NCBI GenBank assembly: GCA_035259575.1
Contig: DATFWE010000009.1
Coordinates: 29,800-93,799 of the forward strand
Direction of reading: 5' to 3'
DNA: 64,000 bases
From: Haliangiales bacterium
GTDB taxonomy: Bacteria; Myxococcota_A; Polyangia; Haliangiales; SHYZ01
Under the pieces are notes generated by a model, which saw only the letters and a program-made list of their open reading frames with translations, did no database searches and was not told the DNA's origin. The translations under genes and the position numbers were made by a program. Position 1 is the stretch's first letter, and every line of letters begins with the position of its first letter. Below are positions 10,581-63,154 of this stretch, piece after piece.

Positions 10581-11689
10581 TTGTCACCCGCTTTCTTCTT
10601 CTGCTGCTGCGCGTCCTTCTTCTTCTTGCGCTCGAGCGCCTTCTGCTCGCGCTCGATGCCCTTCTGCGCGGCGGCGATGTGATCGTCGACGATCGGCACG
10701 CCGCCGGGCCCCGCCCGCTGCTTGTACTCGGCGAGGAACTTCTGCGCGCTCTGCATGCGCGGCAGCCCGTCGAGCCCGGGGAACGGATCCGCGTCGAGGT
10801 AGAGGATCCCCAGGTTGAAGTACGCGGGCGCGTAGCCGGGGTTGATCTGCTGCGCGAGCTTCAGCTCCATCTCCGCCTTGCGCAGGAGGGTGTCGCGCGC
10901 CGTCGGGTCGTCGGCCGAGCGCCCGCGGTAGGCGGCGCCGAGGTAGGTGTGCGCGCGCGCCGACTGGCTCTGGAGCGACACGAGCCGCTCGAACACGTTG
11001 ACGGCGTCGGCGTAGCGCTTGCGCTTGAGGTAGATCGTCCCCTTGTTGTGGAGCGCGGCGATGTAATCCGGCCGCAGGGACGTCGACCGTTCGTACGCCG
11101 ACAGCGCCTCGTCCTCGCGGTGGGTGCGGTCGTAGGTGAGACCGAGGAGCATCCACAGGACCGGGCTCTGGTCGCCCTCGCGCTGGCGCTTGGCGATGGT
11201 GAGCACCGCCTCGACCTTGTCGTCGTACCCCTTGAGATAGTACGCGTGCGCCAGCCGGATCATCGCCGGGACGCTGGACTCGTCTGCGTCGAGCGCGGCG
11301 CGGGCGGCGCGCATCGCCGTGTCGGCGTCGCGGGCCTTGAGCGCCTGGTCGGCCTTGCGCAGCTGCTCCTGGACGATGGCTGAGCGCTTGTCCGCCGGCA
11401 GATCCAGCGTCGGCGGCTTGGGACCCGTCAGGGCCGGAGCGGCGGGCTCCGGCGCGGGCGGAGGAGGAGCCGGCGTCGCCGTCGCCGGCTGCGGCTCGGG
11501 CGGAAGGTCGGTGTAGGTGACCTCGGCGTCGCTCGCGGGCTTCGGCGCCGCCGCCTTCGCGGCCGGCGTCGTCGGCTGCCGGGCCGGCTTCGAGCCGCCG
11601 CAGGCCGCCAGCGCCAACGCCCACGTCAAGACACACCACCGCACGGACGTACCGACGCGTGAGCCCGAGAAACGATCTGGCGGGCTCAT
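10577..11689 (-). CDS. TPR-repeat lipoprotein (GltE/AglT/NfsE-like)
   Basis: Lipobox LALAACGG and a Pro/Ala-rich linker, followed by several TPR units (..AMIRLAHAYYLKGYDDKVEAVL.., ..IAALHNKGTIYLKRKRYADAVNVFE..). The ATG at 11689 overlaps the upstream TGA (ATGA). The upstream part of the 1428-aa track ORF is shadow frame. Confidence 0.7.
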   Translation of the reverse strand: MSPPDRFSGSRVGTSVRWCVLTWALALAACGGSKPARQPTTPAAKAAAPKPASDAEVTYTDLPPEPQPATATPAPPPPAPEPAAPALTGPKPPTLDLPADKRSAIVQEQLRKADQALKARDADTAMRAARAALDADESSVPAMIRLAHAYYLKGYDDKVEAVLTIAKRQREGDQSPVLWMLLGLTYDRTHREDEALSAYERSTSLRPDYIAALHNKGTIYLKRKRYADAVNVFERLVSLQSQSARAHTYLGAAYRGRSADDPTARDTLLRKAEMELKLAQQINPGYAPAYFNLGILYLDADPFPGLDGLPRMQSAQKFLAEYKQRAGPGGVPIVDDHIAAAQKGIEREQKALERKKKKDAQQQKKKAGDK

Positions 11690-14600: not shown

Positions 14601-15207
14601 CGGGCGTCTGGCGCATCTCGCCGCGGTAGTAGGCGTATAGGTAGATGGCCCCGTCGACCTGCCGGTACTTCGGGAACCGTTCGTTGATCTGCCGCCAGAT
14701 GTCGAGGGACGGCGTGTAGTCCGGCCCCGCGTACTGCGGCGGAGCCTCGGGGTCGACCGGCGGCGGCGGCGTGTCGGCGGAGGCCGCCTCCTTCTCGTCC
14801 CACTCCCACTTGGCCTTGTCGAGGTAGAGATCCGCCAGGCGGAACATCGCGTCCGGCGTCCACTTCGGATCGTCGGGGTACTTGACGAGGAACTTCTGCA
14901 ACGCCTCGAGCGCGCTCATGTGACGCGCGCGGTAGTCCTTCTCCGCCCCGTCCATCGCCTTGTGGTAGCGCTCGGCGGCTGCCCTCACCTTGTCCTGGTA
15001 CTCGCGGCGGAGGATGCCGCGCATCTGCTCGACGTGGTCGCCGACGGCGCCGGCGTAGCGATCGGCGTCGCGCTCCACCTCCTTGAGCACATCGAGCTCC
15101 TGCGGGGTGAGCTCGCGCGGCGGCGCCCCCGGTTTGGGCCTCGGCGGCGCGGGCTGCTGCTGCGCCCAGGCCGTCGACGCGACCAGCGCAATGAGGAGCG
15201 CCATCAT
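11686..15207 (-). CDS. Large periplasmic TPR protein (GltD/AgmU/NfsD-like), about 1173 aa
   Basis: Signal peptide MMALLIALVASTAWAQQ starts at 15207. TPR-like helical repeats run throughout (..FRLADLYLDKAKWEW.., ..ALYKLAWSYYRNNQFMDGIQAFDE..). Size and position between the GltC-like and GltE-like genes fit. The 66 codons upstream in the track ORF are the repeat element, not protein. Confidence 0.75.
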   Translation of the reverse strand: MMALLIALVASTAWAQQQPAPPRPKPGAPPRELTPQELDVLKEVERDADRYAGAVGDHVEQMRGILRREYQDKVRAAAERYHKAMDGAEKDYRARHMSALEALQKFLVKYPDDPKWTPDAMFRLADLYLDKAKWEWDEKEAASADTPPPPVDPEAPPQYAGPDYTPSLDIWRQINERFPKYRQVDGAIYLYAYYRGEMRQTPESRQAFLGLVCRNKFDPLGTPPPPPDPRELRRRLAAGARPQTVDPYQGCEPMTQNQDLIDEGWIRVGEIDFDTPGSLPTAIAAYKRVAHNTKSKFYDIALYKLAWSYYRNNQFMDGIQAFDELVAYSDKLEDQGQPKNDLRGESVQYLAISFTDPWEENTLSDPVKAMERLNAFYKGRTNERHVRDVYEQVGDVLRLSAGTPPGGEVPPEIRTAYREAINAWRFTLDHYPTHPRNPVVHQKIVDALAFMGDAQAAGDERARLATAYKRGTPWYTANETNREAMDNASRLTEGSLIEAARNQHRSAQLAKQQYQKAPTPDGKRGYLRLYAEAANLYQAYLQEFPNSSDAYEVTYRLADCLYFSEQYVASVERYRWVRDHQELGTKYHDDAADSVVKAYEEAVAQAKAQGALKEPPVPTPETFAKGARSLSVPSLYRDLQGAYDEYAKLVPNDSTASQKALAAAMISYRHVQLDDALARFQGIMTTYCKTSEAVQAKEGMLAIYQGRGQTDKFQATADKFIGDKCGSTPQDVLVAQKQKLSNEYTVAINAYKDGRFDEAGQRFYGLYKAGTDVFADRAGAMFNAALAYTKAGKPKTAVALYQEFVKVPEFAKSEYYIEALYRTAESYQAAFDYEAAVDTYLQVVDEAAKPGRTSRPEFNLEEARVNALYNAALLRDLDRVYYDRGKNDPGAATLYKRYAAFDQKNRERARDAFFNAALVYEKAGNTKDMIATFDQWKRQYGKDAGAGFKLVLAQHKTAKAMEKARDKDAADKYYKATIRAYDESGEKPASPASELAGEAQFWLAEQYYKKEFEKYKVRWLGNIADKNQTRASAAVVKTIDELQKVAKATSAGYEAVARFEASWSLAAIVRLGDIAFFAGQKLLDAPVPAEITRLDKQYPEQNVLGSYQESLEQQVAPNTELAKKQWLRAVETAKKAGVANEWSKLAQQRLNSYIAADQYPVQRDELVDKEQNP

Positions 15208-15401
15208 TGTTGCACCGCCGGCTCGCGTCCGCGCGGGGGCTCCAGGTCGCGTGGCTGCGCCTCGCTCCAGGGTCGCGCCCGTCCGCGCTTCCGCTCGCCA
15301 GCTCGTGGTTGCACCGCCGGCTCGCGTCCGCGCGGGCGCTCCAGGTCGCGTGGCTGCGCCTCGCTCCACGGTCGCGCTCGGCCGCGCTGCCGCTCGCCGG
15401 C
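15208..15401. repeat. Tandem dimer (2 x 95 nt, joined by TCGT) of the junction repeat family also found at 21627-21720 and 23191-23284
   Basis: Both copies carry (t/g)gttgcaccgcc...ccaggtcgcgtggctgcgcctcgctcca(g/c)ggtcgc... and fill the whole gap between the stop at 15402-15404 and the start at 15205-15207. The dimer is flanked by TCAT on both sides. Confidence 0.85.
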
Positions 15402-17747
15402 TCATGGCTTCTCTCCCGGCTTGGGCGGCTCCGCCTGCTTGTCCTGGATGACGTCGCGAAACTCCGCCTCGAGCGTGTTCTTCTCGCGCGCGAAATCGAT
15501 GCGCAGGCGGTCGGCGTACTTCTGCGCCTGCTCCTTCTGCGCCCACGTCACGTCGAGGAGCCCCACGTCGGAACGGACCACGAAGTCCTTGAACTTCCGC
15601 GCGACGCGCCCGAACGACCCGGCGACAACGTCGGAGCCGACGTCCACCGTCTCGCCGTCGTAGCTGCCGAGCTGCTGCTGATAGCCCACCAGCGCCGCTT
15701 TCTCCTCGGCGATCGCCACCTTGACCTCGCGGAGCTGCCCCTCCACCGCCTGGTCGATGCGGCCGTTGACCCGGCCCACGGTTTGCTCCACGTTGTCGGC
15801 GCGCGCGAGCTGGGACTCGATGTCGCGGACGCGCCCCGCCGAGTCGCCGCCGGCGCGCGACGCGGCCCGCGCGACGACGTCGTGCTCGGCCTTCACGGCT
15901 GCGCGCATCTGCTTCCGCAGCTCCTGCTCCTCGAGGGCCAGCTCGTCGCCGATTCCGGCCTCGTCCGCCGCCAGCTCGGTCTCGTGGTGGAACTTCTCGA
16001 GCTGGCCCCGCAGCGCGGCGATGTCGTCGCGGATCGGCTTGCGCTCGCGCTCGAACTGCTCGGGCGTCATCTTGACCGGCTGGGTGGCGTAGTAGCGCTC
16101 GAGCGCCACCATCTGCGCCTCGAGGCTGTACAGGAACACCTCCACCTCGGTGGCGCGCTTGTCGATCTCGTCCACCGCCTCGCGCGCCTTGCGCTGGCGC
16201 TCCTCGTAGGCGTCGCCGCTGTTGGGCAGCGCGGCGAGCTTGCGCGCCAGCCCCTCGCGCACCGCCGCGACGCGCTGGAGCTCCGCCTGCTCTCCCGCCG
16301 ACAGGCTGCCGAGGACGAGCACGCGCTCCTCGTTGCCGAGCGATGTGCGGACGCGCGTCAGCCCCTCCTGGATCTCCTCCGCCTGGGCGCGCCGCGACGC
16401 CAGCTCGGGGAAGATGCGCACGCGCGACGGCGACGCCACCGCGCGCTCGAGGCGCGCGATACCCTTGGCCGCGTCGTCGAGGTCGACGCGCACCTCGTCG
16501 AGCGTCTTGGTCACGCCGAGGACGCGCCCGGCCTCCGGATCCTCCTTCACCGCCTCCAGCGCCGTCTTGGGCACCTCGATCTGGACGTCGAGCGCCTCCC
16601 CCCCCTTGCCCGTCAGCGCGTTGAAGTATGCCCTGCGGTCGCCGTGCGCAGCCAGGAGCTTGTCGATCTCGTCCTTGCTCTTCTGATAGGTGTCGCGCAT
16701 CTGCTCGAACGTCGTCGTCGCCTTTGCATACTCCTCGCTGGTGTTGCCGAGGCCCTCGGCGCCGATCCCCTGCGCCTTGCGCAGGCGGAGGTTCCCCTCG
16801 AGGAGGCGGATCTCCGGCAGGTCCGACGCCTTGGGGCTGGCGAGCTGCAGGAGCTCGAGCGCGCGCAGCGCACGGTCGTACTGCTTGGCCTTCACGTAGG
16901 CCCAGGCGATCTCCTGCAGCGCGTCGCCGAATGCGGGCGACCGCCGGCTGATCGCCTGGTAGGCGTCGATCGCCTCCTGCGTCTGATTGCGCTCGTAGAA
17001 CACGCGCCCCAGCGCGAGGCGCGACAGCTCCACGATCATCTCCTCGTCCTTGTTCTTCGTCGGCTCGCGCGTGACGCCCTGGAACGCCTTGGCCGCGGCT
17101 GCGAGGTCGCCCTTCTGGGCGTGGGTCACGCCGATGAAGTAGTGCGCCTGCATGGCGTAGGACGACGTCGGCGGGATCGCCTCGAAGAACCGCAGCGCTT
17201 CGTCGTAGCGGCCGGCCGAGTAGGCGTACTTGCCGCGCACGTAGGGCACCGACTCGAGCGCCTTGCCCGCCGGGAGGCGGTCGAGGCGGGCCAGGTAGTC
17301 CTGGATGCGGGCCGGATCTTTGGTGCGGACGACGAGCTCGACCAGGCGCCCCAGCGCCTCGCCGTAGTGCGGCGAGCTCTCGCCGAGCGTGTCGATGACC
17401 TTGTGGAAGTAATCGCGGGCGAGGAGATTGTCGCCCTTCTTGAACAGGCAGTCGGCGAGGAAGAACAGCGCGTCGGGGTACGAGCGCGTCGTCGCGTGCT
17501 TCTCCACGACGTCGTAGAGGAGGACGGCCGCATCGTCGTAGTGGCCCACGCCGTACAGGACCTGCGCGCGGATGAGGCGGCGCTCGGCCATGTCGGCCTC
17601 GTTCTCCTTGGCCGGGGTCAGCTTGGCGAGCCCGTTCTCGAGCTCGATCGCCCGCTGCTCGAGGTAAGACAGCCGGCTTTGCGGATCCTCCTGCGCCTGG
17701 GCCGCCGCGGCGAAGCCGAGGGCGGCCACCCAGAGGAAAGCTCTCAT
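15402..17747 (-). CDS. Periplasmic TPR plus coiled-coil protein (GltC/NfsC-like)
   Basis: Signal peptide MRAFLWVAALGFAAAAQAQ. The N-terminal half holds TPR units (..AQVLYGVGHYDDAAVLLYDVV.., ..MQAHYFIGVTHAQKGDLAAAAKAFQ..). The C-terminal half is long coiled coil. It lies directly upstream of the GltD-like gene. Confidence 0.65.
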   Translation of the reverse strand: MRAFLWVAALGFAAAAQAQEDPQSRLSYLEQRAIELENGLAKLTPAKENEADMAERRLIRAQVLYGVGHYDDAAVLLYDVVEKHATTRSYPDALFFLADCLFKKGDNLLARDYFHKVIDTLGESSPHYGEALGRLVELVVRTKDPARIQDYLARLDRLPAGKALESVPYVRGKYAYSAGRYDEALRFFEAIPPTSSYAMQAHYFIGVTHAQKGDLAAAAKAFQGVTREPTKNKDEEMIVELSRLALGRVFYERNQTQEAIDAYQAISRRSPAFGDALQEIAWAYVKAKQYDRALRALELLQLASPKASDLPEIRLLEGNLRLRKAQGIGAEGLGNTSEEYAKATTTFEQMRDTYQKSKDEIDKLLAAHGDRRAYFNALTGKGGEALDVQIEVPKTALEAVKEDPEAGRVLGVTKTLDEVRVDLDDAAKGIARLERAVASPSRVRIFPELASRRAQAEEIQEGLTRVRTSLGNEERVLVLGSLSAGEQAELQRVAAVREGLARKLAALPNSGDAYEERQRKAREAVDEIDKRATEVEVFLYSLEAQMVALERYYATQPVKMTPEQFERERKPIRDDIAALRGQLEKFHHETELAADEAGIGDELALEEQELRKQMRAAVKAEHDVVARAASRAGGDSAGRVRDIESQLARADNVEQTVGRVNGRIDQAVEGQLREVKVAIAEEKAALVGYQQQLGSYDGETVDVGSDVVAGSFGRVARKFKDFVVRSDVGLLDVTWAQKEQAQKYADRLRIDFAREKNTLEAEFRDVIQDKQAEPPKPGEKP

Positions 17748-20195: not shown

Positions 20196-21626
<1,431 letters not shown>

Positions 21627-21720
21627 TGTTGCACCGCCCCCTCGCTCCGGCGCGCCGCTCCGGGTCGCTCGGCTGCGCCTCGCTCCAGGGTCGCTCGTTG
21701 GCGCGCCTCCGCTCGGGGGC
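21627..21720. repeat. 94-nt structured junction repeat (gatA|gatB)
   Basis: It fills the intergenic gap exactly and is flanked by TCAT at 21623-21626 and 21721-21724. It shares tgttgcaccgc and the core ggtcgctcggctgcgcctcgctccaggg with the 23191 and 15208 copies. Terminal imperfect inverted repeats lie at 21636-21656 and 21700-21720. Confidence 0.85.
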
Positions 21721-23190
<1,470 letters not shown>

Positions 23191-23284
23191 TGTTGCACCG
23201 CTCGCGCGCGACGGCTCGGGGCGCCAGGTCGCTCGGCTGCGCCTCCCTCCAGGGGCGCCTCTCTCCTCGCCGTCGCGCGCTCGC
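23191..23284. repeat. 94-nt structured junction repeat (gatC|gatA)
   Basis: Same length, same conserved blocks at the same offsets as 21627-21720, and flanked by TCAT (23187-23190, 23285-23288). The inverted-repeat arms (23200-23215 and 23269-23284) differ in sequence from the other copy but still pair. Confidence 0.85.
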
Positions 23285-23572
23285 TCATTTCTCGATGATT
23301 CGCGGCACGACGAAGAAATCGTCGACGCGCGCGGGCGCGGCGGCGAGCGCCTCGTCGGCGGACAAAGACGGCGCGGCCGCGTCCTCGCGCAGGGGGCAGT
23401 CGAGCGGCACGGCATGCGTCATCGGCTCGACCCCGGTCGTATCCAGGGCCTGCAGCTTTTCGACGTAGGCGAGGATGCTCTGGAGCTCCCCGCGCAGGCG
23501 CTCGGCCTCGGCCGCGCCCAGGCGGAGGCGCGCCAGCCCGGCCAGCTCCTCGACGTCTTCCCGGGTGATCAT
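23285..23572 (-). CDS. gatC: Glutamyl-tRNA(Gln) amidotransferase subunit C
   Basis: 95 aa. [30 protein letters not shown] is the typical GatC pattern. It lies upstream of gatA. Confidence 0.9.
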
Positions 23573-25867: not shown

Positions 25868-26059
25868 AAACAAACAAGGAATTCGAACAAGGAATTCGAA
25901 GTCGAACGGGGGAGCAGAGAGGGCCGCTCCCGAGCAGCGAAGCGCCTCGCCGGCATTCGAATTTCGAACGGGGAAGCACAGAGGGCCTCCCGCGAGCACG
26001 GAAGGCCCTCTCCGGCATTCGAATTCGAATTCCTTGTTCCTTGTTCCTTGTTCCTTGTT
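25868..26059. repeat. AT-richer palindromic/tandem repeat block in a convergent intergenic region
   Basis: The left arm has ACAAGGAATTCGA twice (25874-25899). Two ~61-62-nt tandem units lie at 25895-25955 and 25956-26017, each TTCGAA..TCGAACGGGG..hairpin..CCGGCA. The right arm is TTCGAATTCGAATTCC plus four copies of TCCTTGT (26018-26058), the inverted complement of the left arm. Confidence 0.8.
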
Positions 26060-27889
26060 CTATTCGACCACCCGCAGCACCGGGCCGGTGCCGTCGTCGC
26101 CGGCGCGCTCGGGCGCGACGACGACCCGATTCCGCCCCTCGCGTTTGGCGCGGTAGACGGCGCGGTCGGCCGCGCCGATGAGCGCAGGCTCGTCGGCGCC
26201 GTGCGCGGGGTACGCGGCGACGCCGATCGAGGTGCGGACGATCGCCCCCACGGTCTCCGCGCCGTTGTCGACGATGATGTGCTCGGCGCCGGCGCGAATG
26301 CGCTCCGCCACCACCTGCGCGCCGGCCAGATCCGTATCCACCAGCAGCACGACGAACTCCTCGCCGCCGTAGCGGATGACCGCGTCGCCGTTGCGGACGG
26401 TGTTGTGGAGGAGCGCCGCGAACGCCACCAGCGCCCGGTCGCCCACCTGGTGGCCGTGGCTGTCGTTCACTTGCTTGAAGTGGTCCAGGTCGCACACGAG
26501 CACCGCGAGCGGGCGCTTGCGCCGCGCCGCCACGCTGAGCTGCTTGGCCAGATACTCGGACAGGAAGGCGCGGTTGTACGCGCTGGTCAGGCTGTCGCGC
26601 AGCGCGCGCTCGCGCGTCGACGACAGGAGCCGGATCGAGCTCAACGTCGTCGACGCGAAGTTGATGTAGCCCTGGCTGCCCTCGAGGGACTCGCGCGGGA
26701 AGCGGCCGCGCTCGGTCGATTGCATGTTGACGATGCCGACGAGCTCGCCCGCCGACACCATCGGCACGCAGCAGTAGGATCCCGCTTCGGGCACGCCGAG
26801 CGGGCAGGCGCACGCGACCGGCGCATCGGAGTCGGCGCTCACCGGGCGGAGCGTGCGCACCGCGCGGCAGCGCATCGGCTCGGACAGGATGGGGTGATGG
26901 CCGACCTCATCCGGCGGCAGTGGCCCCGGCCAGGTCACCTCCAGCCGGTTGCGGCTGGCGTTGCGGACGAGGATCTGGAGCTTGTCCGGCGCCATCGTGT
27001 CGTCCAGCGTGCGGGCGAGCGCCTGGTGGAGCTCGTGCTCGTCGACGAGCTGCTGCACGAACTCGCCGAAGGCGTTGAACGCCACCGCGCGCGCGTGCGC
27101 CTGGGCGCGGGCGCGCTCGCGCTCGCGCGCGGTGCGATCGAGGTCGTGCAGCGCCTGCTGCAGACCGGCGACCTCGCGCACCTTGACCCCCGCCCCCGGC
27201 GCGGCGAACGGCTCGCCGGCGCTGGCCTTGCGCTCGAGCTCGGCGAGCGGTCCGGCGGTCCGGCGCAGGAACGCGCGCATGATCCACAGGCCCATGACGA
27301 AGACGAGGGCGGTGACGCCGTGGCCGATGAGGCGCGCCTCCTGGATGAGGCGATCCGCGCGCGCAATCGCCGCCTCGGAGATGTCGCGCAACACATCGCT
27401 GAGCTCCGCGTGCGCGGCGCGCACGCGCTCGAACAGGCGCTTGCCCTCGATGAACGCGGCGGGGAGGTCCTGGATCGGCCCCTTCTCGCGCGCCCAGATC
27501 TGGGGCGAGGCGTAGGCAGTGATCCAATCCGCCGTGGCGTCGTCGACATCGTCGAGGAGCTTGGACACGCGCTCGCGCTCCCCGTCGAGGAGGAGGCGCG
27601 CGAGCTGGAGGCGCGCGTCGCGCGCCGCGTTCCGTCCCGTCTCGTAGGGCTCGAGGAGGCGCCGGTCGCCGCTCGCCAGGTAGCCGCGCAGGCCGACCTC
27701 TTGGTCGACGAGGCCGAGCAGGCGCGCGCGGGCGGACGCGGCGATCATGTCGTGGCGGACGACCGCGGCGCGGCGGTCGTCGGCGGCGCGAAGGACCCGT
27801 TCCGAGGTGAGGACCGACACCGCCGCCCCGCCGAGCAGGATCCCGCCCATTCCGGCGAGGAGCATGGCGCGCAGGGACCAGCGGAACAT
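26060..27889 (-). CDS. Diguanylate cyclase with CHASE3 sensor, GAF-like domain and GGDEF domain
   Basis: The start MFRWSLRAMLLAGMGGILLGGAAV (TM) is at 27889. CHASE3 pattern ..GLRGYLASGDRRLLEPYE... A second TM follows, then a GAF-like region and a GGDEF domain with RYGGEEF. An RxxD I-site (RNGD) lies 5 residues upstream. The rest of the 1253-aa track ORF is shadow frame over the next gene. Confidence 0.9.
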   Translation of the reverse strand: MFRWSLRAMLLAGMGGILLGGAAVSVLTSERVLRAADDRRAAVVRHDMIAASARARLLGLVDQEVGLRGYLASGDRRLLEPYETGRNAARDARLQLARLLLDGERERVSKLLDDVDDATADWITAYASPQIWAREKGPIQDLPAAFIEGKRLFERVRAAHAELSDVLRDISEAAIARADRLIQEARLIGHGVTALVFVMGLWIMRAFLRRTAGPLAELERKASAGEPFAAPGAGVKVREVAGLQQALHDLDRTARERERARAQAHARAVAFNAFGEFVQQLVDEHELHQALARTLDDTMAPDKLQILVRNASRNRLEVTWPGPLPPDEVGHHPILSEPMRCRAVRTLRPVSADSDAPVACACPLGVPEAGSYCCVPMVSAGELVGIVNMQSTERGRFPRESLEGSQGYINFASTTLSSIRLLSSTRERALRDSLTSAYNRAFLSEYLAKQLSVAARRKRPLAVLVCDLDHFKQVNDSHGHQVGDRALVAFAALLHNTVRNGDAVIRYGGEEFVVLLVDTDLAGAQVVAERIRAGAEHIIVDNGAETVGAIVRTSIGVAAYPAHGADEPALIGAADRAVYRAKREGRNRVVVAPERAGDDGTGPVLRVVE

Positions 27890-27996: not shown

Positions 27997-29943
27997 CTAC
28001 TTCTTGCGGAAGCGGTCGAAGAGGCCCTTCTTGTCGCCGCCCTTGCGCCGCATCTCGAGGAGGCGCACCTCGCGCAGCGCGTCCACGTGCCCCTCGGCCA
28101 GATCGAGGACGCGGTGGAACGCCGCCATGGCGCGCGCTTCGTCGCCGACGTGCTTGTAGAGCTGCCCCAGGTAGAAGAACGCCGGGACGCACTTCGAGTT
28201 CAGCTCGATGGCCTTGTTGAGCTCTTTCTTGATGTCGAGGGCGATCGCGTCCTTGTCGTCGGCGTGGCACCACGTCGCCCACGCGGCCATGGCGTGGTGC
28301 TCCCCCTCGTCGGGGTTGAGCTCGAGCGCGGTCTTGAACTCCTTCTCGGCGAGGGAGAAGAGCTGCCGCCTGAGCGCCATCTCGCCCTTGCGGAAGTGCT
28401 CCTCGGCGGTGAGGATCTTGGTGGCGCGGGCGACCTCGTCCTCGTCGCCGCGCATTGCGCCGTGCCGGCCGCCCTCGAGGAGGTGGGAGTATTCGGCGCG
28501 CTTCTTGTCGTCGCCCAGCACGGCATACGCCTCGCTCAGGCGGGCGAAGATCTTCTCCACCTGCGGGCGGAGGTTCTCGAGCTTGACGATCGACAGGCGA
28601 TCGGGGTGGTACATCTTGGCCAGTTGGAAGTACGCGGTCTTGATCTGGGCGCTGCCCGCGTCGCGCGGAACGCCGAGGATGACGAAGTAGTCGGCGTTGA
28701 CCTCGACCTGTCCGAGCTTGTGGATGATGTGCTCGCGCAGCGTGCCCGCGGCGCCGGCGCCGTCGAGCGTGTGGCGGCCGACCTTGGGGAAGGGCCCGGA
28801 CCCGGACGCGCTCGGCTGCGGCGACTCGGCGCGCGGCGTCGGGGCTTTTGCCTCGGCGTGCGGGCCGGTCTGCCGCGCCTGCGGGCCGGTGGCGCGCACG
28901 TTCGGTCCGGTCGGCGACGGCGGGCGGAGAGGTCCCGTGTCGCGCGCCTTCGGCGCAGTGGAGGACGACGGCGACGGCGGATGGAGCGGCCCGGTTCCCT
29001 GGGGCGGCGTGCGATTCGCGCCGGTGCCGTTCGGGACGCGCGACGGCGGCGCCGGCGGCGGCGCCGGCGGCGGCCCGACGTTGGTCACGCCGGTGCGCGG
29101 GCGCTGCGGCGGATCCGGCGCGAACGGGGACTCGATGCGGGGGTTGGTCGTCTCGGCGATTTCCATCTCCTGGGTCGCCTCGCGCGGGCGCTTGCGCAGG
29201 CGGGGGACGGAGGTCGCGGGCTTCACGTCGACGGCGTCGAAGGCGTAGAGGCCATAGACGACCGCGAGCACCGATTCGCGCGGCAGGGTGAGGCACGCGG
29301 CGACGAGGTCGTCGAGCAGCCAGTAGCCCTTGTTCAGGTAGGCCAGCACCACGAGCTCGTCGTCGGCGAACCCGTAGGCTCCCTGGATCCCGTTCGGGTC
29401 GATGGCCATCTTGAGCGCCGACCCGGACAGCGCGCCGCCCAGCTCGCGTTCCAAACGGTCCTGCCCGCCATGCAGCCGCATGCCCTTGTAGACCACCCAG
29501 CGGGGCTCGAGCGGCTCGGCGGCCTGTTCCTCGGGCGGGTGCGCCCCGGCCTCCACATGGAATGTGGCATGGGGGAGCGCAAACAGTCGGAGCGCACGCC
29601 GCGTCAGCGTCATGCGGACCGCCCGCGAAACATTCTCCGCGGAGAGCGCCTTCATGTCGACGAGAACCTCGAGCTGCCCCTTCTTGCGGTTCTGCGCCAT
29701 CCGGCGCAACGACTCGCCCAGCGCGCTCGGATCGACGAGGCCACCGTCGAGGGCGACCCGCCCCAGCGTGTCCTCGGGCGCCGCGCTCTCGGCTGCGACC
29801 AGCACGCCCGACCGGAACCACACCGCATGGCGCCGCATGTCCTGCTCCAGGCGGAGCGCGCCGGTGAAGCCCTGCACCGCCAGCCTGCCCATGAGCGGCC
29901 CCAGCGGCACGGTTTCGACGTTTCCCGAGCTGGGAAAGGTCAC
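27997..29943 (-). CDS. DUF4388 (PatA-N-like) / Pro-rich linker / DnaJ J-domain / TPR protein
   Basis: N-terminus ..LMGRLAVQGFTGALRLEQDMRRHAVWFRSGVLVAAES.. is the DUF4388 pattern. The J domain DYFVILGVPRDAGSAQIKTAYFQLAKMYHPDR contains HPD. The C-terminal repeats are TPR-like. Confidence 0.8.
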   Translation of the reverse strand: MTFPSSGNVETVPLGPLMGRLAVQGFTGALRLEQDMRRHAVWFRSGVLVAAESAAPEDTLGRVALDGGLVDPSALGESLRRMAQNRKKGQLEVLVDMKALSAENVSRAVRMTLTRRALRLFALPHATFHVEAGAHPPEEQAAEPLEPRWVVYKGMRLHGGQDRLERELGGALSGSALKMAIDPNGIQGAYGFADDELVVLAYLNKGYWLLDDLVAACLTLPRESVLAVVYGLYAFDAVDVKPATSVPRLRKRPREATQEMEIAETTNPRIESPFAPDPPQRPRTGVTNVGPPPAPPPAPPSRVPNGTGANRTPPQGTGPLHPPSPSSSTAPKARDTGPLRPPSPTGPNVRATGPQARQTGPHAEAKAPTPRAESPQPSASGSGPFPKVGRHTLDGAGAAGTLREHIIHKLGQVEVNADYFVILGVPRDAGSAQIKTAYFQLAKMYHPDRLSIVKLENLRPQVEKIFARLSEAYAVLGDDKKRAEYSHLLEGGRHGAMRGDEDEVARATKILTAEEHFRKGEMALRRQLFSLAEKEFKTALELNPDEGEHHAMAAWATWCHADDKDAIALDIKKELNKAIELNSKCVPAFFYLGQLYKHVGDEARAMAAFHRVLDLAEGHVDALREVRLLEMRRKGGDKKGLFDRFRKK

Positions 29944-30209
29944 TCGCGCTTCTCCGCTCGACGGGTCCTCACCTTACGGAGTACGTAGGACAGGGCAAAT
30001 ATGCCCACCATGCTCAACACCACCCCGACGACCCACGGATCAGCGTCCATACGCATTGGATTTTACAAGAGTGTCGGCCAAACGTCTCCCTTGTCAATGT
30101 GGCGACTAGACGTATTCTTCCTTACCCCTCATACGTTGATAGATCTTCCGGGCCTTCCCTTAGGGGCGAAGGCCGCGGACTCATTGGGGTTGCGTTATAC
30201 TCGAGGCGC

Positions 30210-39951: not shown

Positions 39952-41696
39952 CCTTTCTCCCCCAGCACCAGGCGGTGAAGCAGCGCCTCCTCGAGGCCCT
40001 GCGCGGTCTCGCCGATCTCGCCGGCGCCGCCGGCATGAAGACGCTCCGCGCCGACCTCGTCGAGACGCGCGTGCCCAAGCTCGAGGAGGAGCGCTTCCAC
40101 CTCGTCGTCCTCGGCGAGTTCAACCACGGCAAGTCCACGTTCGTGAACGCGCTCCTCGGCGCGGACGTCCTGCCTACCGGCATCACCCCCACGACCGCCA
40201 CGATCAACCACGTGGTGTGGGCGGACCGGCCCCGCGCCAAGGCGGTCTTGACCGGGGGCAAGGAGATCGCCGTCGATCCCAAGGCGCTCGCCGACTGGGT
40301 CACCGTCGACGGGAGCCACGCCGCCGAGACGCACTACGTCGAGGTGGGCTGGCCGGCCGCGTTCCTCGAGGACAAGCTCACGCTCGTCGACACGCCCGGG
40401 GTGAACGACCTCAACGAGCAGCGCGCCGAGATCACCTACGAGTACGTGCCGCGCGCCGACGCCGTGCTGTTCCTCCTCGACGCGGGGCAGGCGCTCAAGG
40501 AGTCCGAGCGCGCGTTCCTCGCCTCGCGCCTGCTCGAGCGCTCGCGCGACCGGATGATCTTCGTCGTGTGCAAGGCGGACCTGCTCACGCCCGAAGAGCT
40601 CGCCGACGTGGTGCGCTACGTCGAGGACAACCTCGGCCGCCTGGTCGACGATCCGCCCGTGTTCGCCGTATCCGCCCGCAAGCACCTCGCCGGCGACAGG
40701 GCGGCCGGGCGCATGGAGCCGCTGCTCCAGCACCTCGCCCGCTCGCTCACCGAGGACCGCGGGCGCGTCCTCCTCGACAACGCCGCCGCCGAGGGGCTCC
40801 GCGCCGCCGGGTACCTCAAGCAGAACCTCGGCGTCAAGCGCAGCGCGTTCGAGCTCAGCCTCGCCGAGCTCACCGAGCGGGTCGAGAAGGTCCGCTCGCA
40901 CCTCTCGGCCACGAAGGACAATCTCGAGCGCCTGCACGACAAGATCCGTTCCGAGGGCGACGCGATCAAGGCGCGCGTGCGCCTCGACGTCGAACAGTTC
41001 GCCGAACGCTTCCAGCGCGCCATCATCGGCGAGATCGACAAGGCCGACGCCCACGACGTGAAGCGTTACCTGCCGCTCTACATCCAGGACAAGTTCAAGG
41101 AGTGGGCCGAGCTCGAGGGCGAGGCCTGCGCCGAGCTGCTCGAGCGGCTGGCGGAGGAGGCGATCACCGTCACCAACGAGAACGCGCGCGCGGCCACGGC
41201 CGCGGTCGCCGAGCGGCTCGGGCCCACCGACGCGCGATTCCAGGTCGACGTCGATACGTTCCGCTACGACGTCTCGGTCTACGCCGTCGGCGCGCTGGGC
41301 ACCACCGTGTTCCTGTTCGTGAACACGCTGGTCGGGGGCGTCCTCACGCTCGCCGCGCCCATCCTGGCGATCGTGCTCCACTCGCGCGCCGCGGCCGAGA
41401 TCAAGGACCAGGCGATGGAGAAGGCGCCCGAGGCGATCCGCCAGGCGGCGGCGCTGATGCGCCCGCACTTCGAGCGGCTGGTGAACGAGTTCGTGACGCG
41501 CCTGGGCGACTTCGTGACCGCGGCGGGCGACAAGCTCTACCGCGGCATCACCGAGGTGCTCGACCAGGCGATCGCCGAGCGCCGCGCCCGCGGCGACGCG
41601 GTGGCGCCGCTGGCCGCCGAGGCCGAGGAGCAGATCGCGCGCCTGTCCGCCCTCGAGGAGGGGATCACCCAGCTCCGCGCCGATCTGTGGAAGTGA
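39948..41696 (+). CDS. Bacterial dynamin-like GTPase (BDLP) with hydrophobic paddle
   Basis: G1 GEFNHGKSTFVNALLG, G2/G3 ..TPTTA.. and LVDTPGVND, G4 CKADL. The stalk is helical. A hydrophobic membrane-insertion segment is YAVGALGTTVFLFVNTLVGGVLTLAAPILAIVL. The ATG overlaps the upstream TGA (ATGA). Confidence 0.85.
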   Translation: MTFLPQHQAVKQRLLEALRGLADLAGAAGMKTLRADLVETRVPKLEEERFHLVVLGEFNHGKSTFVNALLGADVLPTGITPTTATINHVVWADRPRAKAVLTGGKEIAVDPKALADWVTVDGSHAAETHYVEVGWPAAFLEDKLTLVDTPGVNDLNEQRAEITYEYVPRADAVLFLLDAGQALKESERAFLASRLLERSRDRMIFVVCKADLLTPEELADVVRYVEDNLGRLVDDPPVFAVSARKHLAGDRAAGRMEPLLQHLARSLTEDRGRVLLDNAAAEGLRAAGYLKQNLGVKRSAFELSLAELTERVEKVRSHLSATKDNLERLHDKIRSEGDAIKARVRLDVEQFAERFQRAIIGEIDKADAHDVKRYLPLYIQDKFKEWAELEGEACAELLERLAEEAITVTNENARAATAAVAERLGPTDARFQVDVDTFRYDVSVYAVGALGTTVFLFVNTLVGGVLTLAAPILAIVLHSRAAAEIKDQAMEKAPEAIRQAAALMRPHFERLVNEFVTRLGDFVTAAGDKLYRGITEVLDQAIAERRARGDAVAPLAAEAEEQIARLSALEEGITQLRADLWK

Positions 41697-62938: not shown

Positions 62939-63154
62939 CTACCTCTTCACCGGGTCGAAGCCGCCTCTACAGAACGGATGACATCGGAGGAGGCGCAGTA
63001 GCGCGGCCGCCGTGCCCCGCCAGGCTCCGTGCACCTCGATCGCCTCCCGCGCGTACTCCGAGCAGGTGGGCAGAAACCGACACGACGGCGTGCGTTTGAG
63101 CGGCGACAGCCACCGCCGATAAAACCCGATCAACGCCAGCAGGAGCCGCCTCAT
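62939..63154 (-). CDS. yidD: Membrane protein insertion efficiency factor YidD
   Basis: LIGFYRRWLSPLKRTPSCRFLPTCSEYAREAI..HG.. is the canonical YidD sequence. The ATG at 63154 overlaps the rnpA TGA (ATGA). Confidence 0.9.
   Translation of the reverse strand: MRRLLLALIGFYRRWLSPLKRTPSCRFLPTCSEYAREAIEVHGAWRGTAAALLRLLRCHPFCRGGFDPVKR

Follow-up and report, generated by a model that had tools for sequence, protein, structure and literature searches.

Why should the whole gap between two neighboring genes be taken up by a single structured repeat with the same tetranucleotide on both sides? The question is raised by a 64,000-nucleotide (nt) stretch of a Haliangiales (Myxococcota) metagenome-assembled genome (MAG; GCA_035259575.1, contig DATFWE010000009.1), hereafter called the window, in which the GC content is 68-75%. 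On the coding (minus) strand, gatA ends with ...CCG TGC CCA TGA, 94 nt follow, and gatB then starts with ATGAATTGGGAG. A preliminary description had reported this 94-nt element between the gatA stop and the gatB start, flanked by ATGA (TCAT on the other strand), and its sequence is exactly as described there. It is a member of a family of repeats of about 98 nt, probably non-autonomous, from soil Haliangiales-like Myxococcota. Our best reading, which we also regard as probable, is that of a selfish element resembling the interspersed repetitive units of mycobacteria (MIRUs) and made harmless through relayed translational coupling. Contigs or loci from other genomes and metagenomes that were compared with the window are labeled L001 to L037.

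Copies of the element in the window

By repeat search and alignment, four units were found in the window; they share the coding strand and have the same boundaries. Their layout is the same throughout: NTGA / GC...stem...CTGGAGCGAGGCGCAGCCGAGCGACCYGG...stem...GCGGTGCAACA / ATGA. Each holds a small open reading frame (mini-ORF) of 33 codons, which opens at an ATG overlapping the upstream stop and usually ends at a TGA overlapping the downstream start. The copies, the parts of copy B and the gat genes around them, the latter assigned by Pfam (GatC at 23288-23572, GatA/Amidase at 21724-23190 and GatB at 20199-21626), are as follows.

21623..21724, minus strand: element copy B, at the gatA-stop/gatB-start junction, with a period of 98 nt (cmsearch 104 bits, E 1.6e-21)
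21724-21721, minus strand: left ATGA of copy B, with the gatA stop TGA and the ATG of the mini-ORF
21720-21627, minus strand: body of copy B, 94 nt between the two ATGA
21626-21623, minus strand: right ATGA of copy B, with the mini-ORF stop TGA and the gatB ATG
21636..21720, minus strand: imperfect hairpin of copy B, with outer stem GCCCCC/GGGGGC and inner stem GGCGCGCC/GGCGCGCC
21660..21690, minus strand: apical core CCCTGGAGCGAGGCGCAGCCGAGCGACCCGG of copy B, closing on a GGC-GCA-GCC triloop and nearly invariant in all copies
21627..21635, minus strand: unpaired 3' tail GGTGCAACA of copy B, from the hairpin foot to the gatB ATG
23187..23288, minus strand: element copy A, between the gatC stop TGA (23287-23285) and the gatA ATG (23190-23188), with a period of 98 nt (106.5 bits)
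15303..15405, minus strand: element copy C, first tandem unit, whose left ATGA (15405-15402) overlaps the stop of a 781-amino-acid (aa) TPR gene; period of 99 nt
15204..15306, minus strand: element copy D, second tandem unit, whose right ATGA (15207-15204) holds the start of a 1173-aa TPR gene (MMALLIALVASTAWA...); period of 99 nt
20196..21626, minus strand: gatB, 476 aa, downstream partner of copy B
21721..23190, minus strand: gatA, 489 aa counted from the ATG at 23190, upstream of copy B and downstream of copy A
23285..23572, minus strand: gatC, 95 aa, upstream partner of copy A

Copies C and D are 93% identical and have ACGA at their internal junction, and the 1173-aa TPR gene downstream of them has a signal peptide at its start. 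A covariance model built from 19 units revealed no further unit in the window beyond A-D; its weak match at 40661-40753 (E = 0.6) was taken as chance.

Target sites and empty counterparts

The gatA/gatB junction is uninterrupted in a relative with 88% GatB identity (L008, L009), where it reads caccATGAcgtggga, while in L007, with 91% GatB identity, at least three tandem units lie there and the contig starts inside the array. More distant relatives (L028-L035, 73-75% GatB identity) have direct ATGA/GTGA overlaps and no element within 10 kb on either side. The overlap at gatA/gatB is ATGA in L008, L009, L031 and L032 and GTGA in L028, the last having a plain GTGA also at gatC/gatA and at the TPR/TPR junction. 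There is a reciprocal case as well:

11686..11689, minus strand: empty target, ATGA overlap of the 1173-aa TPR gene stop with the next TPR gene start, filled in L027

This junction after the 1173-aa TPR gene is empty in the window and carries at least two units in the syntenic L027, which itself lacks the element at the TPR/TPR junction where the window has copies C and D. An empty site is shorter than a filled one by precisely one element and one tetranucleotide. Uninterrupted overlaps thus occur in relatives at all three window sites, as the preliminary description had anticipated. Together with the location at junctions, the filled and empty orthologous sites indicate an insertion-polymorphic, target-specific repeat.

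Copy B is 75% identical to the L007 units of the same gatA/gatB junction, and copy A is 90% identical to them. The low figure for copy B means that the insertions at this junction were independent or that one of them was replaced. In both cases the gatA/gatB junction was hit more than once, and its two filled sites carry different subfamilies.

In nearly all units the left neighbor is an upstream gene ending in TGA, and the right one a co-oriented downstream gene starting with NTG. On the left, the TGA is the in-frame end of upstream ORFs open over 96 to 875 codons; on the right, ORFs of 121 to 1173 codons on the same strand begin at the NTG. All units have one orientation relative to the genes and to NTGA, and the gene pairs hosting them are unrelated (gatCAB, TPR proteins, AAA ATPase, lipoproteins). 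The specificity for ATGA junctions proposed at the outset is thereby borne out, in the wider form of NTGA at stop/start junctions. No spacing of genes is commoner in prokaryotes than such a -4 NTGA overlap (PMC12548453). The two strands of the window together have 286 ATGA, and all three occupied sites are gene junctions. The preliminary description had listed five further ATGA junctions here; those at 11686, 34528, 39948 and 59303 are indeed stop/start overlaps, while the one at 63151 was not retained, its short partner ORF falling below the length filter.

At the external left boundary, 12 loci have A as the N of NTGA and 5 have G, with T and C at one locus each. Third codon positions in genes are about 90% G+C, and the excess of A in spite of this marks the left N as part of a start codon. 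The 20 nt 5' of the left NTG show complementarity to the anti-Shine-Dalgarno sequence (mean of -7.9 kcal/mol, against -4.9 for random 20-mers of the window, p = 1e-4), so that the original ribosome-binding site of the downstream gene still lies ahead of the element. Every complete copy has a TGA at either side, and in 13 of 19 loci the NTGA is the same left and right over all four bases.

Two copies are at ATGA/GTGA sites other than overlaps. One is in L007 (1678-1785), exactly at the gatB stop (CTGA...ATGA) and about 60 nt 5' of rplU, the empty counterpart in L008 being gagaATGAtcttgacc; the other, in L010, follows a TAA stop. It seems from these insertions that the NTGA sequence, and not the overlap as such, is recognized. 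Selection would remove insertions inside genes and leave those at junctions.

Distribution and variation of the family

A pattern consisting of the core and the GGTGCAA tail only, so that the flanks were not part of the selection, was found in 17 soil-metagenome contigs. The covariance model scores these contigs at 85-115 bits and adds units in the same contigs and in L027. Besides the four units of the window there are about 30 units in soil-metagenome contigs, and the expectation that other copies exist was therefore correct. Three outcomes had been named beforehand as speaking against insertion, namely copies straying from junctions, a lack of empty sites and a lack of other copies. None of them was found, and the insertion reading is supported.

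In the contigs of species-representative genomes, scanned with a 24-nt core, there was no family member, and the bare core was found in other phyla; the matches in L004 and L005 are probably due to chance. Exact matches to the 23-nt apical core GGAG[CT]GAGGCGCAGCCGAGCGACC are present in MAGs from other phyla: in Planctomycetales, in a 'Streptomyces' MAG beside GTAGG motifs, in Gaiellaceae after a terminator-like hairpin and in Acidimicrobiia within five tandem 64-nt units. Core matches lie at L001 7800 (minus), L002 6344-6472 (minus), L003 1941-1964 (plus) and L006 2794-3122 (minus), and no core-bearing locus of other phyla has the NTGA-flanked 98-nt architecture. Viral contig and plasmid collections gave no matches to the element. 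Rfam at gathering threshold gave 0 matches in the window and a single tRNA in the related loci, and a permissive Rfam scan of the element gave a chance match alone (E = 5.6). In a peptide profile search just 6 called proteins match the mini-ORF product, and there was no protein match to the translated 99-nt-type units.

Tandem arrays were found in the window (C+D, 2 units), L007 (at least 3), L019 (at least 4), L016 (3) and L027 (at least 2). Tandem neighbors are 93-98% identical, against a family mean of 79%, which indicates that arrays grow by local duplication, as in the variable number tandem repeat (VNTR) loci formed by MIRUs. The arrays of 99-nt units precede signal or lipoprotein-type starts (MMALLIALVASTAWA in the window and MTRLVLLAVPALALGAC in L019).

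Some copies have altered structures. Long variants with a second GC-rich hairpin nested inside are seen in L016 (minus, about 219-640), L019 (948-1108), L036 (977-1141) and L021 (84-237). The nested hairpin follows GCCGAGCG in L016, L019b and L036, with inserted sequences that differ by locus, and the L021 insert follows CCCTG. In L012 (21-120, minus) there is a solo remnant, aGTGA-GCGAGCGGTGCAACA-GTGA, in which the flanks and both element ends are kept and the whole hairpin is gone; it looks like the footprint of an excision or the product of a deletion spanning the direct repeats GCGAGCG of the two arms. In L037 (425-533) the left stop was lost (CCCA for NTGA), and the upstream ORF reads through the element in the consensus frame, gaining a C-terminal extension.

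Conserved hairpin, core and tail

Each unit can form an imperfect hairpin of about 85 nt, from 2 nt after the left ATGA to 9 nt before the right ATG, so that the imperfect inverted-repeat arms around a core noticed earlier are the arms of a long imperfect hairpin with compensatory changes. For the covariation test, the full 32-pair structure was imposed on a MAFFT alignment of 19 units. Standard pairs fill 78.6% of the alignment cells, and in 14 pairs both partners have changed. In 500 shuffles the real alignment was never reached on any of five measures, and when the 3' partner is slid by 1-3 columns, pairing falls to 23-39% and double changes to 1-7. The oppositions that are not Watson-Crick comprise 96 G·A/A·G, 13 G·G, 13 A·C, 5 G·U and 0 C·T. 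They are arranged as tandem GA/AG steps among GC pairs and are replaced by Watson-Crick pairs in some copies. Mismatches of purine with purine in the absence of C·T, which on the other strand would set pyrimidine against pyrimidine, point to a fold selected on the sense strand, either in mRNA or in single-stranded DNA of the same polarity. These 14 covarying pairs with tandem G·A steps on the sense strand and the 33-codon mini-ORF are features beyond those of the preliminary description.

The folding z-scores are modest, from -1.5 to -3.6 for RNA, and 0.05 (copy B) and -3.2 (copy A) for DNA. The hairpin claim therefore rests on covariation, folding energy being a weak signal in a GC-rich background. 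The tail GCGGTGCAA is invariant across the family alignment, and the apical 30 nt are invariant or nearly so. We take the apical GCGCAGC to resemble the very stable GNA triloop of DNA. The element was also considered as an intrinsic terminator, which was rejected as there is no T-run, and as an integron attC site, which was rejected by inspection, the right-end GTGCAAC having no complementary partner at the left end.

A strong Shine-Dalgarno sequence built into the tail was likewise rejected. The tail GGTGCAACA pairs with the anti-Shine-Dalgarno sequence at -5.2 kcal/mol, near the random mean of -4.9, and is at best a weak Shine-Dalgarno. Its conservation may for this reason reflect recognition by whatever moves the element.

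Mini-ORF and reading frame

In copies A and B, the distance from the left ATG to the right TGA is 102 nt, or 34 codons, and a unit of exactly this length gives an in-frame mini-ORF. The total length modulo 3 could be assigned for 22 independent loci or arrays, with the following classes.

2 modulo 3, 18 loci or arrays: the mini-ORF ends on the downstream start (clean relay)
0 modulo 3, 3 loci or arrays (window C+D with 99+99 nt, the L019 array of 99-nt units, and L021b): the frame runs into the downstream ATG
1 modulo 3, 1 locus (L018): out of frame

Length variants are found within the first class, with 95 nt in L011, where two indels compensate each other, and, in copies with a nested hairpin, 152 nt (L019b) and 161 nt (L036). 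The same class includes arrays, namely L007 (99, 99, then 98 nt), L027 (102 then 98 nt) and L016 (three units in a single continuous frame). Since internal array units measure 99 or 102 nt and not 98, an array is one continuous ORF and not a chain of re-initiations; the 99-nt periods of copies C and D place them in frame with the start codon of the 1173-aa TPR gene. The JGI gene caller annotated L036 as gene, 54-aa ORF and gene with 4-nt (-4) overlaps, and in L027 a 67-aa ORF spanning two units.

Comparison with known repeats

The preliminary description knew of no element with such a target. This does not hold, since for MIRUs insertion at start codons has been described, along with an ORF coupled at -4 and direct repeats of a tetranucleotide (PMC12548453; PMC3184786). 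MIRUs (Supply et al. 1997, summarised in PMC12548453, PMC3184786, PMC2734929) are 40-100 bp long, are present at about 41 loci and lie within polycistronic operons. Their ORFs overlap the flanking genes at the ends; further features are direct tetranucleotide repeats, sites empty in M. leprae and a tandem copy number that varies (PMC3184786, PMC12548453, PMC2734929). Coupling kept through insertion is the rationale given for them (PMC12548453). Like MIRUs, the element is a GC-rich intra-operon repeat oriented with the genes (3 of 3 window sites and nearly all metagenome copies with readable flanks), is inserted at start codons with an internal ORF at -4 to both neighbors (18 of 22 loci or arrays), has tetranucleotide repeats at filled sites (the first base being equal in 13 of 19) with empty sites in relatives, and occurs in tandem arrays whose number of units varies (at gatA/gatB, none, 1 or at least 3).

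The family differs from MIRUs in its host, which belongs to Myxococcota and not to Actinomycetota, and in its 85-nt covarying hairpin with tandem G·A mismatches, conserved apical core and invariant 3' tail; the comparison is with published descriptions of MIRUs. In addition, internal array units of 99 or 102 nt make the whole array one ORF here, whereas in MIRUs each unit (77 or 53 bp) has a -4 coupled ORF of its own. The family shares every functional trait of MIRUs testable here, yet in view of its host phylum we leave it outside the MIRUs proper. Rather than something categorically new, it is a clean second MIRU-like example, with many informative copies. In a literature search, no paper on a myxobacterial equivalent was found. 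Fujitani and colleagues reportedly described an 87-bp repeat in Myxococcus xanthus in 1991.

Other known systems share part of these features. REP/REPIN-RAYT elements are also short GC-rich imperfect palindromes in many copies, with compensatory changes in the hairpin; they are non-autonomous, are thought to be recognized as single-stranded hairpins, are co-transcribed and can affect mRNA. The element, in contrast, has no GTAG 5' tetranucleotide and no known link to a RAYT gene, and forms a single 85-nt hairpin instead of paired REPs of 20-35 nt, and it lies exactly at stop/start overlaps in fixed orientation with a framed mini-ORF, while REPs are loosely extragenic. The miniature inverted-repeat transposable elements (MITEs) of operons, Correia/NEMIS, ERIC/IRU and YPAL, resemble it in their length of about 100-170 bp, long RNA stem-loop, filled and empty sites and co-transcription with neighbors, and some carry ORFs fusing to genes (PMC2229807). 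They have, however, terminal inverted repeats, TA duplication, both orientations and no stop/start link (PMC2229807), whereas the ends of the element are asymmetric and its target is NTGA.

PATEs derived from IS200/IS605 insert beside a specific tetranucleotide in one orientation, with a one-strand hairpin and without need of a duplication, a likeness that is consistent and not specific. Unlike the element, which has a single hairpin and no TnpA(Y1) in the window, they have distinct left-end and right-end hairpins plus guide sequences. Rickettsia palindromic elements are similar as palindromic repeats whose length and frame permit translation without destroying host gene expression, but they lie in frame inside coding sequences, and the element lies between genes by way of the stop/start overlap. 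The element lacks the terminal inverted repeats and the copies in both orientations of a DDE-type MITE, the GTAG motif and short palindromes of REP/REPIN, the two end hairpins of IS200/IS605-derived elements and the complementary core sites of attC, and it was assigned to none of them.

Mechanism and alternative explanations

We suggest that the element inserts in fixed orientation at an NTGA in which the upstream TGA overlaps the next ATG or GTG start. With NTGA on each side after insertion, the upstream gene keeps its stop and the downstream gene keeps its start. The mini-ORF would take the old start codon and so inherit the old Shine-Dalgarno sequence and the old stop/start overlap. Ribosomes ending the upstream gene would re-initiate on the mini-ORF, unwind the hairpin while translating, terminate on the downstream start codon and re-initiate there. 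If operon expression is largely preserved in this way, the insertion would be tolerated, and dispersal would need an enzyme supplied in trans. From this analysis we lean cautiously towards the re-initiation relay through the mini-ORF, with operon expression surviving the insertion. The positional argument for it seems stronger than the frame statistics: to judge from the sequence, the mini-ORF takes a start codon that is functional in relatives and keeps both the Shine-Dalgarno sequence and the overlap with the upstream stop.

Several points weigh against this interpretation. Translation of the mini-ORF is something we infer from the sequence. The mini-ORF has no coding signature, its third-position GC being 0.76 against about 0.9 in genes, and it uses the codons CGA, CAA and GCA, which are generally rare in high-GC genomes. 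An open frame alone is uninformative, since stops are scarce in all six frames of GC-rich sequence. About 9 of 10 independent length changes avoid the out-of-frame class, which is suggestive only (p about 0.1, hand binomial). The arrays C+D (15204-15405) and L019 (1-346) read in frame into signal-peptide genes, to which they would add a long N-terminal extension instead of a clean relay. The weak Shine-Dalgarno of the tail also counts against the proposal, and a stable hairpin so close after the mini-ORF start could block initiation. As for mobility, no transposase, integrase or HUH protein was found by Pfam among 36 ORFs of the window. The left N differs from the right N in 6 of 19 loci (GTGA...ATGA in L018, L025 and L011a, and CTGA...ATGA at the L007 gatB stop, among others), with an association between left and right N at Fisher p of about 0.13-0.19 (hand calculation on tabulated flanks), and the duplication is certain only for TGA.

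The step of mobility could be explained in two other ways. The element may move as single-stranded DNA by an HUH/Y1 enzyme, in the style of IS200/IS605 or REP-RAYT, inserting 3' of NTGA without any duplication, with the right RTGA being borne by the element; this is compatible with the relay and rivals only the mobility step, and we hold it as a tentative, somewhat doubtful possibility. It would account for the single orientation of every copy relative to an asymmetric target, for the strand-specific structure with G·A mismatches and never C·T, for the asymmetric ends, which lack terminal inverted repeats and have 9 unpaired nt ahead of the right ATGA, and for the loci with unequal N, and the GNA-like apical triloop also fits it. 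On the other hand, there is one hairpin and not separate left-end and right-end hairpins, no space from the left ATGA to the hairpin foot into which a guide tetranucleotide would fit, no GTAG-type motif and no Y1 transposase seen in the window; moreover, the fixed orientation could equally stem from selection, and the left-N mismatches could be explained by drift under GC pressure at the third position of the last codon of the upstream gene. The second possibility is a classical MITE moved by a DDE transposase with a duplication of 3 or 4 bp (TGA or NTGA), selection then purging insertions away from junctions or in the wrong orientation. TGA on both sides of every complete copy, the full NTGA match in most loci, the exact difference of element plus one tetranucleotide between filled and empty sites, and the insertions at non-overlap ATGA sites (L007 gatB stop and L010) all fit it, and MIRUs have been interpreted so (PMC3184786). 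Nevertheless, we consider it unlikely, because the extreme ends are not inverted repeats (GCGAGCG... on the left, ...GCGGTGCAACA on the right with the reverse complement TGTTGCACC..., the complementarity beginning inside), the approximately 30 units all share an orientation, a scan of 36 window ORFs brought up no related autonomous insertion sequence, and no decayed intragenic copies were seen at the 286 ATGA sites of the window. From the initial proposal of a target-site duplication by a MITE/REP-like element, the TGA duplication is retained; a 4-bp duplication is unproven, as the N differs in 6 of 19 loci, and a MITE in the strict DDE sense is not supported, as the extreme ends are not inverted repeats.

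A host-selected intercistronic RNA module (an mRNA stabilizer, an RNase processing site or an attenuator setting subunit ratios), with spread being secondary, would agree with the sense-strand hairpin kept by compensatory changes across copies of about 79% identity, with the constant co-transcription with flanking genes and with the invariance of apical core and tail. A modular structured intercistronic RNA had indeed been offered as the alternative from the beginning, and it may stand as a consequence of insertion. It leaves unexplained the presence or absence at orthologous junctions of close relatives, with 0 to at least 3 copies at gatA/gatB; the location between unrelated gene pairs and the existence of decayed, nested and deleted copies also count against it. 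No Rfam family matches, and the RNA z-scores are modest for the GC content. We regard the module as quite improbable as a primary explanation. An assembly artefact or a chance likeness in GC-rich DNA could be thought of, as the source is a MAG and several metagenome contigs break inside arrays. The same architecture, however, is present in independent JGI, ENA and NCBI assemblies, with cmsearch scores of 85-115 bits, consistent flanks and a covarying hairpin, and the probability of an artefact is practically nil. The MIRU-like selfish element with relayed coupling is thus the reading that we keep.

Other features of the window

The gatB stop varies among relatives: the gene ends with gaATGAtcttgacc in L008 (2690-2700) and with caATCAtcTTGAcc in the window (20196-20210, minus), where TGA became TCA and the gene is two codons longer. 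An AT-rich palindromic block, unrelated to the element, lies within the GC-rich DNA at 25868-26070. It contains, in this order, AACAAGGAATTCGAA twice, two 62-nt tandem units (25902-25963 and 25964-26025, 84% identical), TTCGAATTCGAATTCC and (CCTTGTT) four times, and its minus-strand RNA fold has a z-score of -5.7. ARAGORN called an unusually long (88-nt) tRNA-Gln(CTG) at 28047-28134 (minus). The call falls within the stop-to-stop ORF of a DnaJ/DUF4388/TPR protein (28000-29973), and the two annotations conflict.

Implications

For typing M. tuberculosis, MIRUs have served for decades. That another family, richer in structure, exists in an unrelated phylum suggests that insertion at the stop/start overlap together with a coupling mini-ORF is a general strategy of small selfish DNA where genomes are gene-dense and high in GC. 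For annotation, it means that 33-codon ORFs and apparent 98-nt gaps within operons should not be taken for new genes or regulatory regions. Junctions with 0, 1 or several mini-ORF units are a natural test of the range of the coupling relay, and the diverged copies, filled and empty sites, covarying hairpin and invariant core and tail are starting material for a search of the mobilizing enzyme.

A further version is distinctly unlikely in our judgment, namely an active single-hairpin mobile element that recognizes NTGA overlaps as single-stranded DNA and has evolved a translational relay (inherited Shine-Dalgarno sequence and start codon, framed mini-ORF, and stop on the next start), convergent with MIRUs. 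If true, it would be a transposon invisible to operon expression and could expose the class of enzyme that moves MIRU-like elements, and the 23-nt core in Actinomycetota and Planctomycetota MAGs would be a recognition site shared across phyla. The family could make the movement and the coupling effects of MIRU-type elements tractable.

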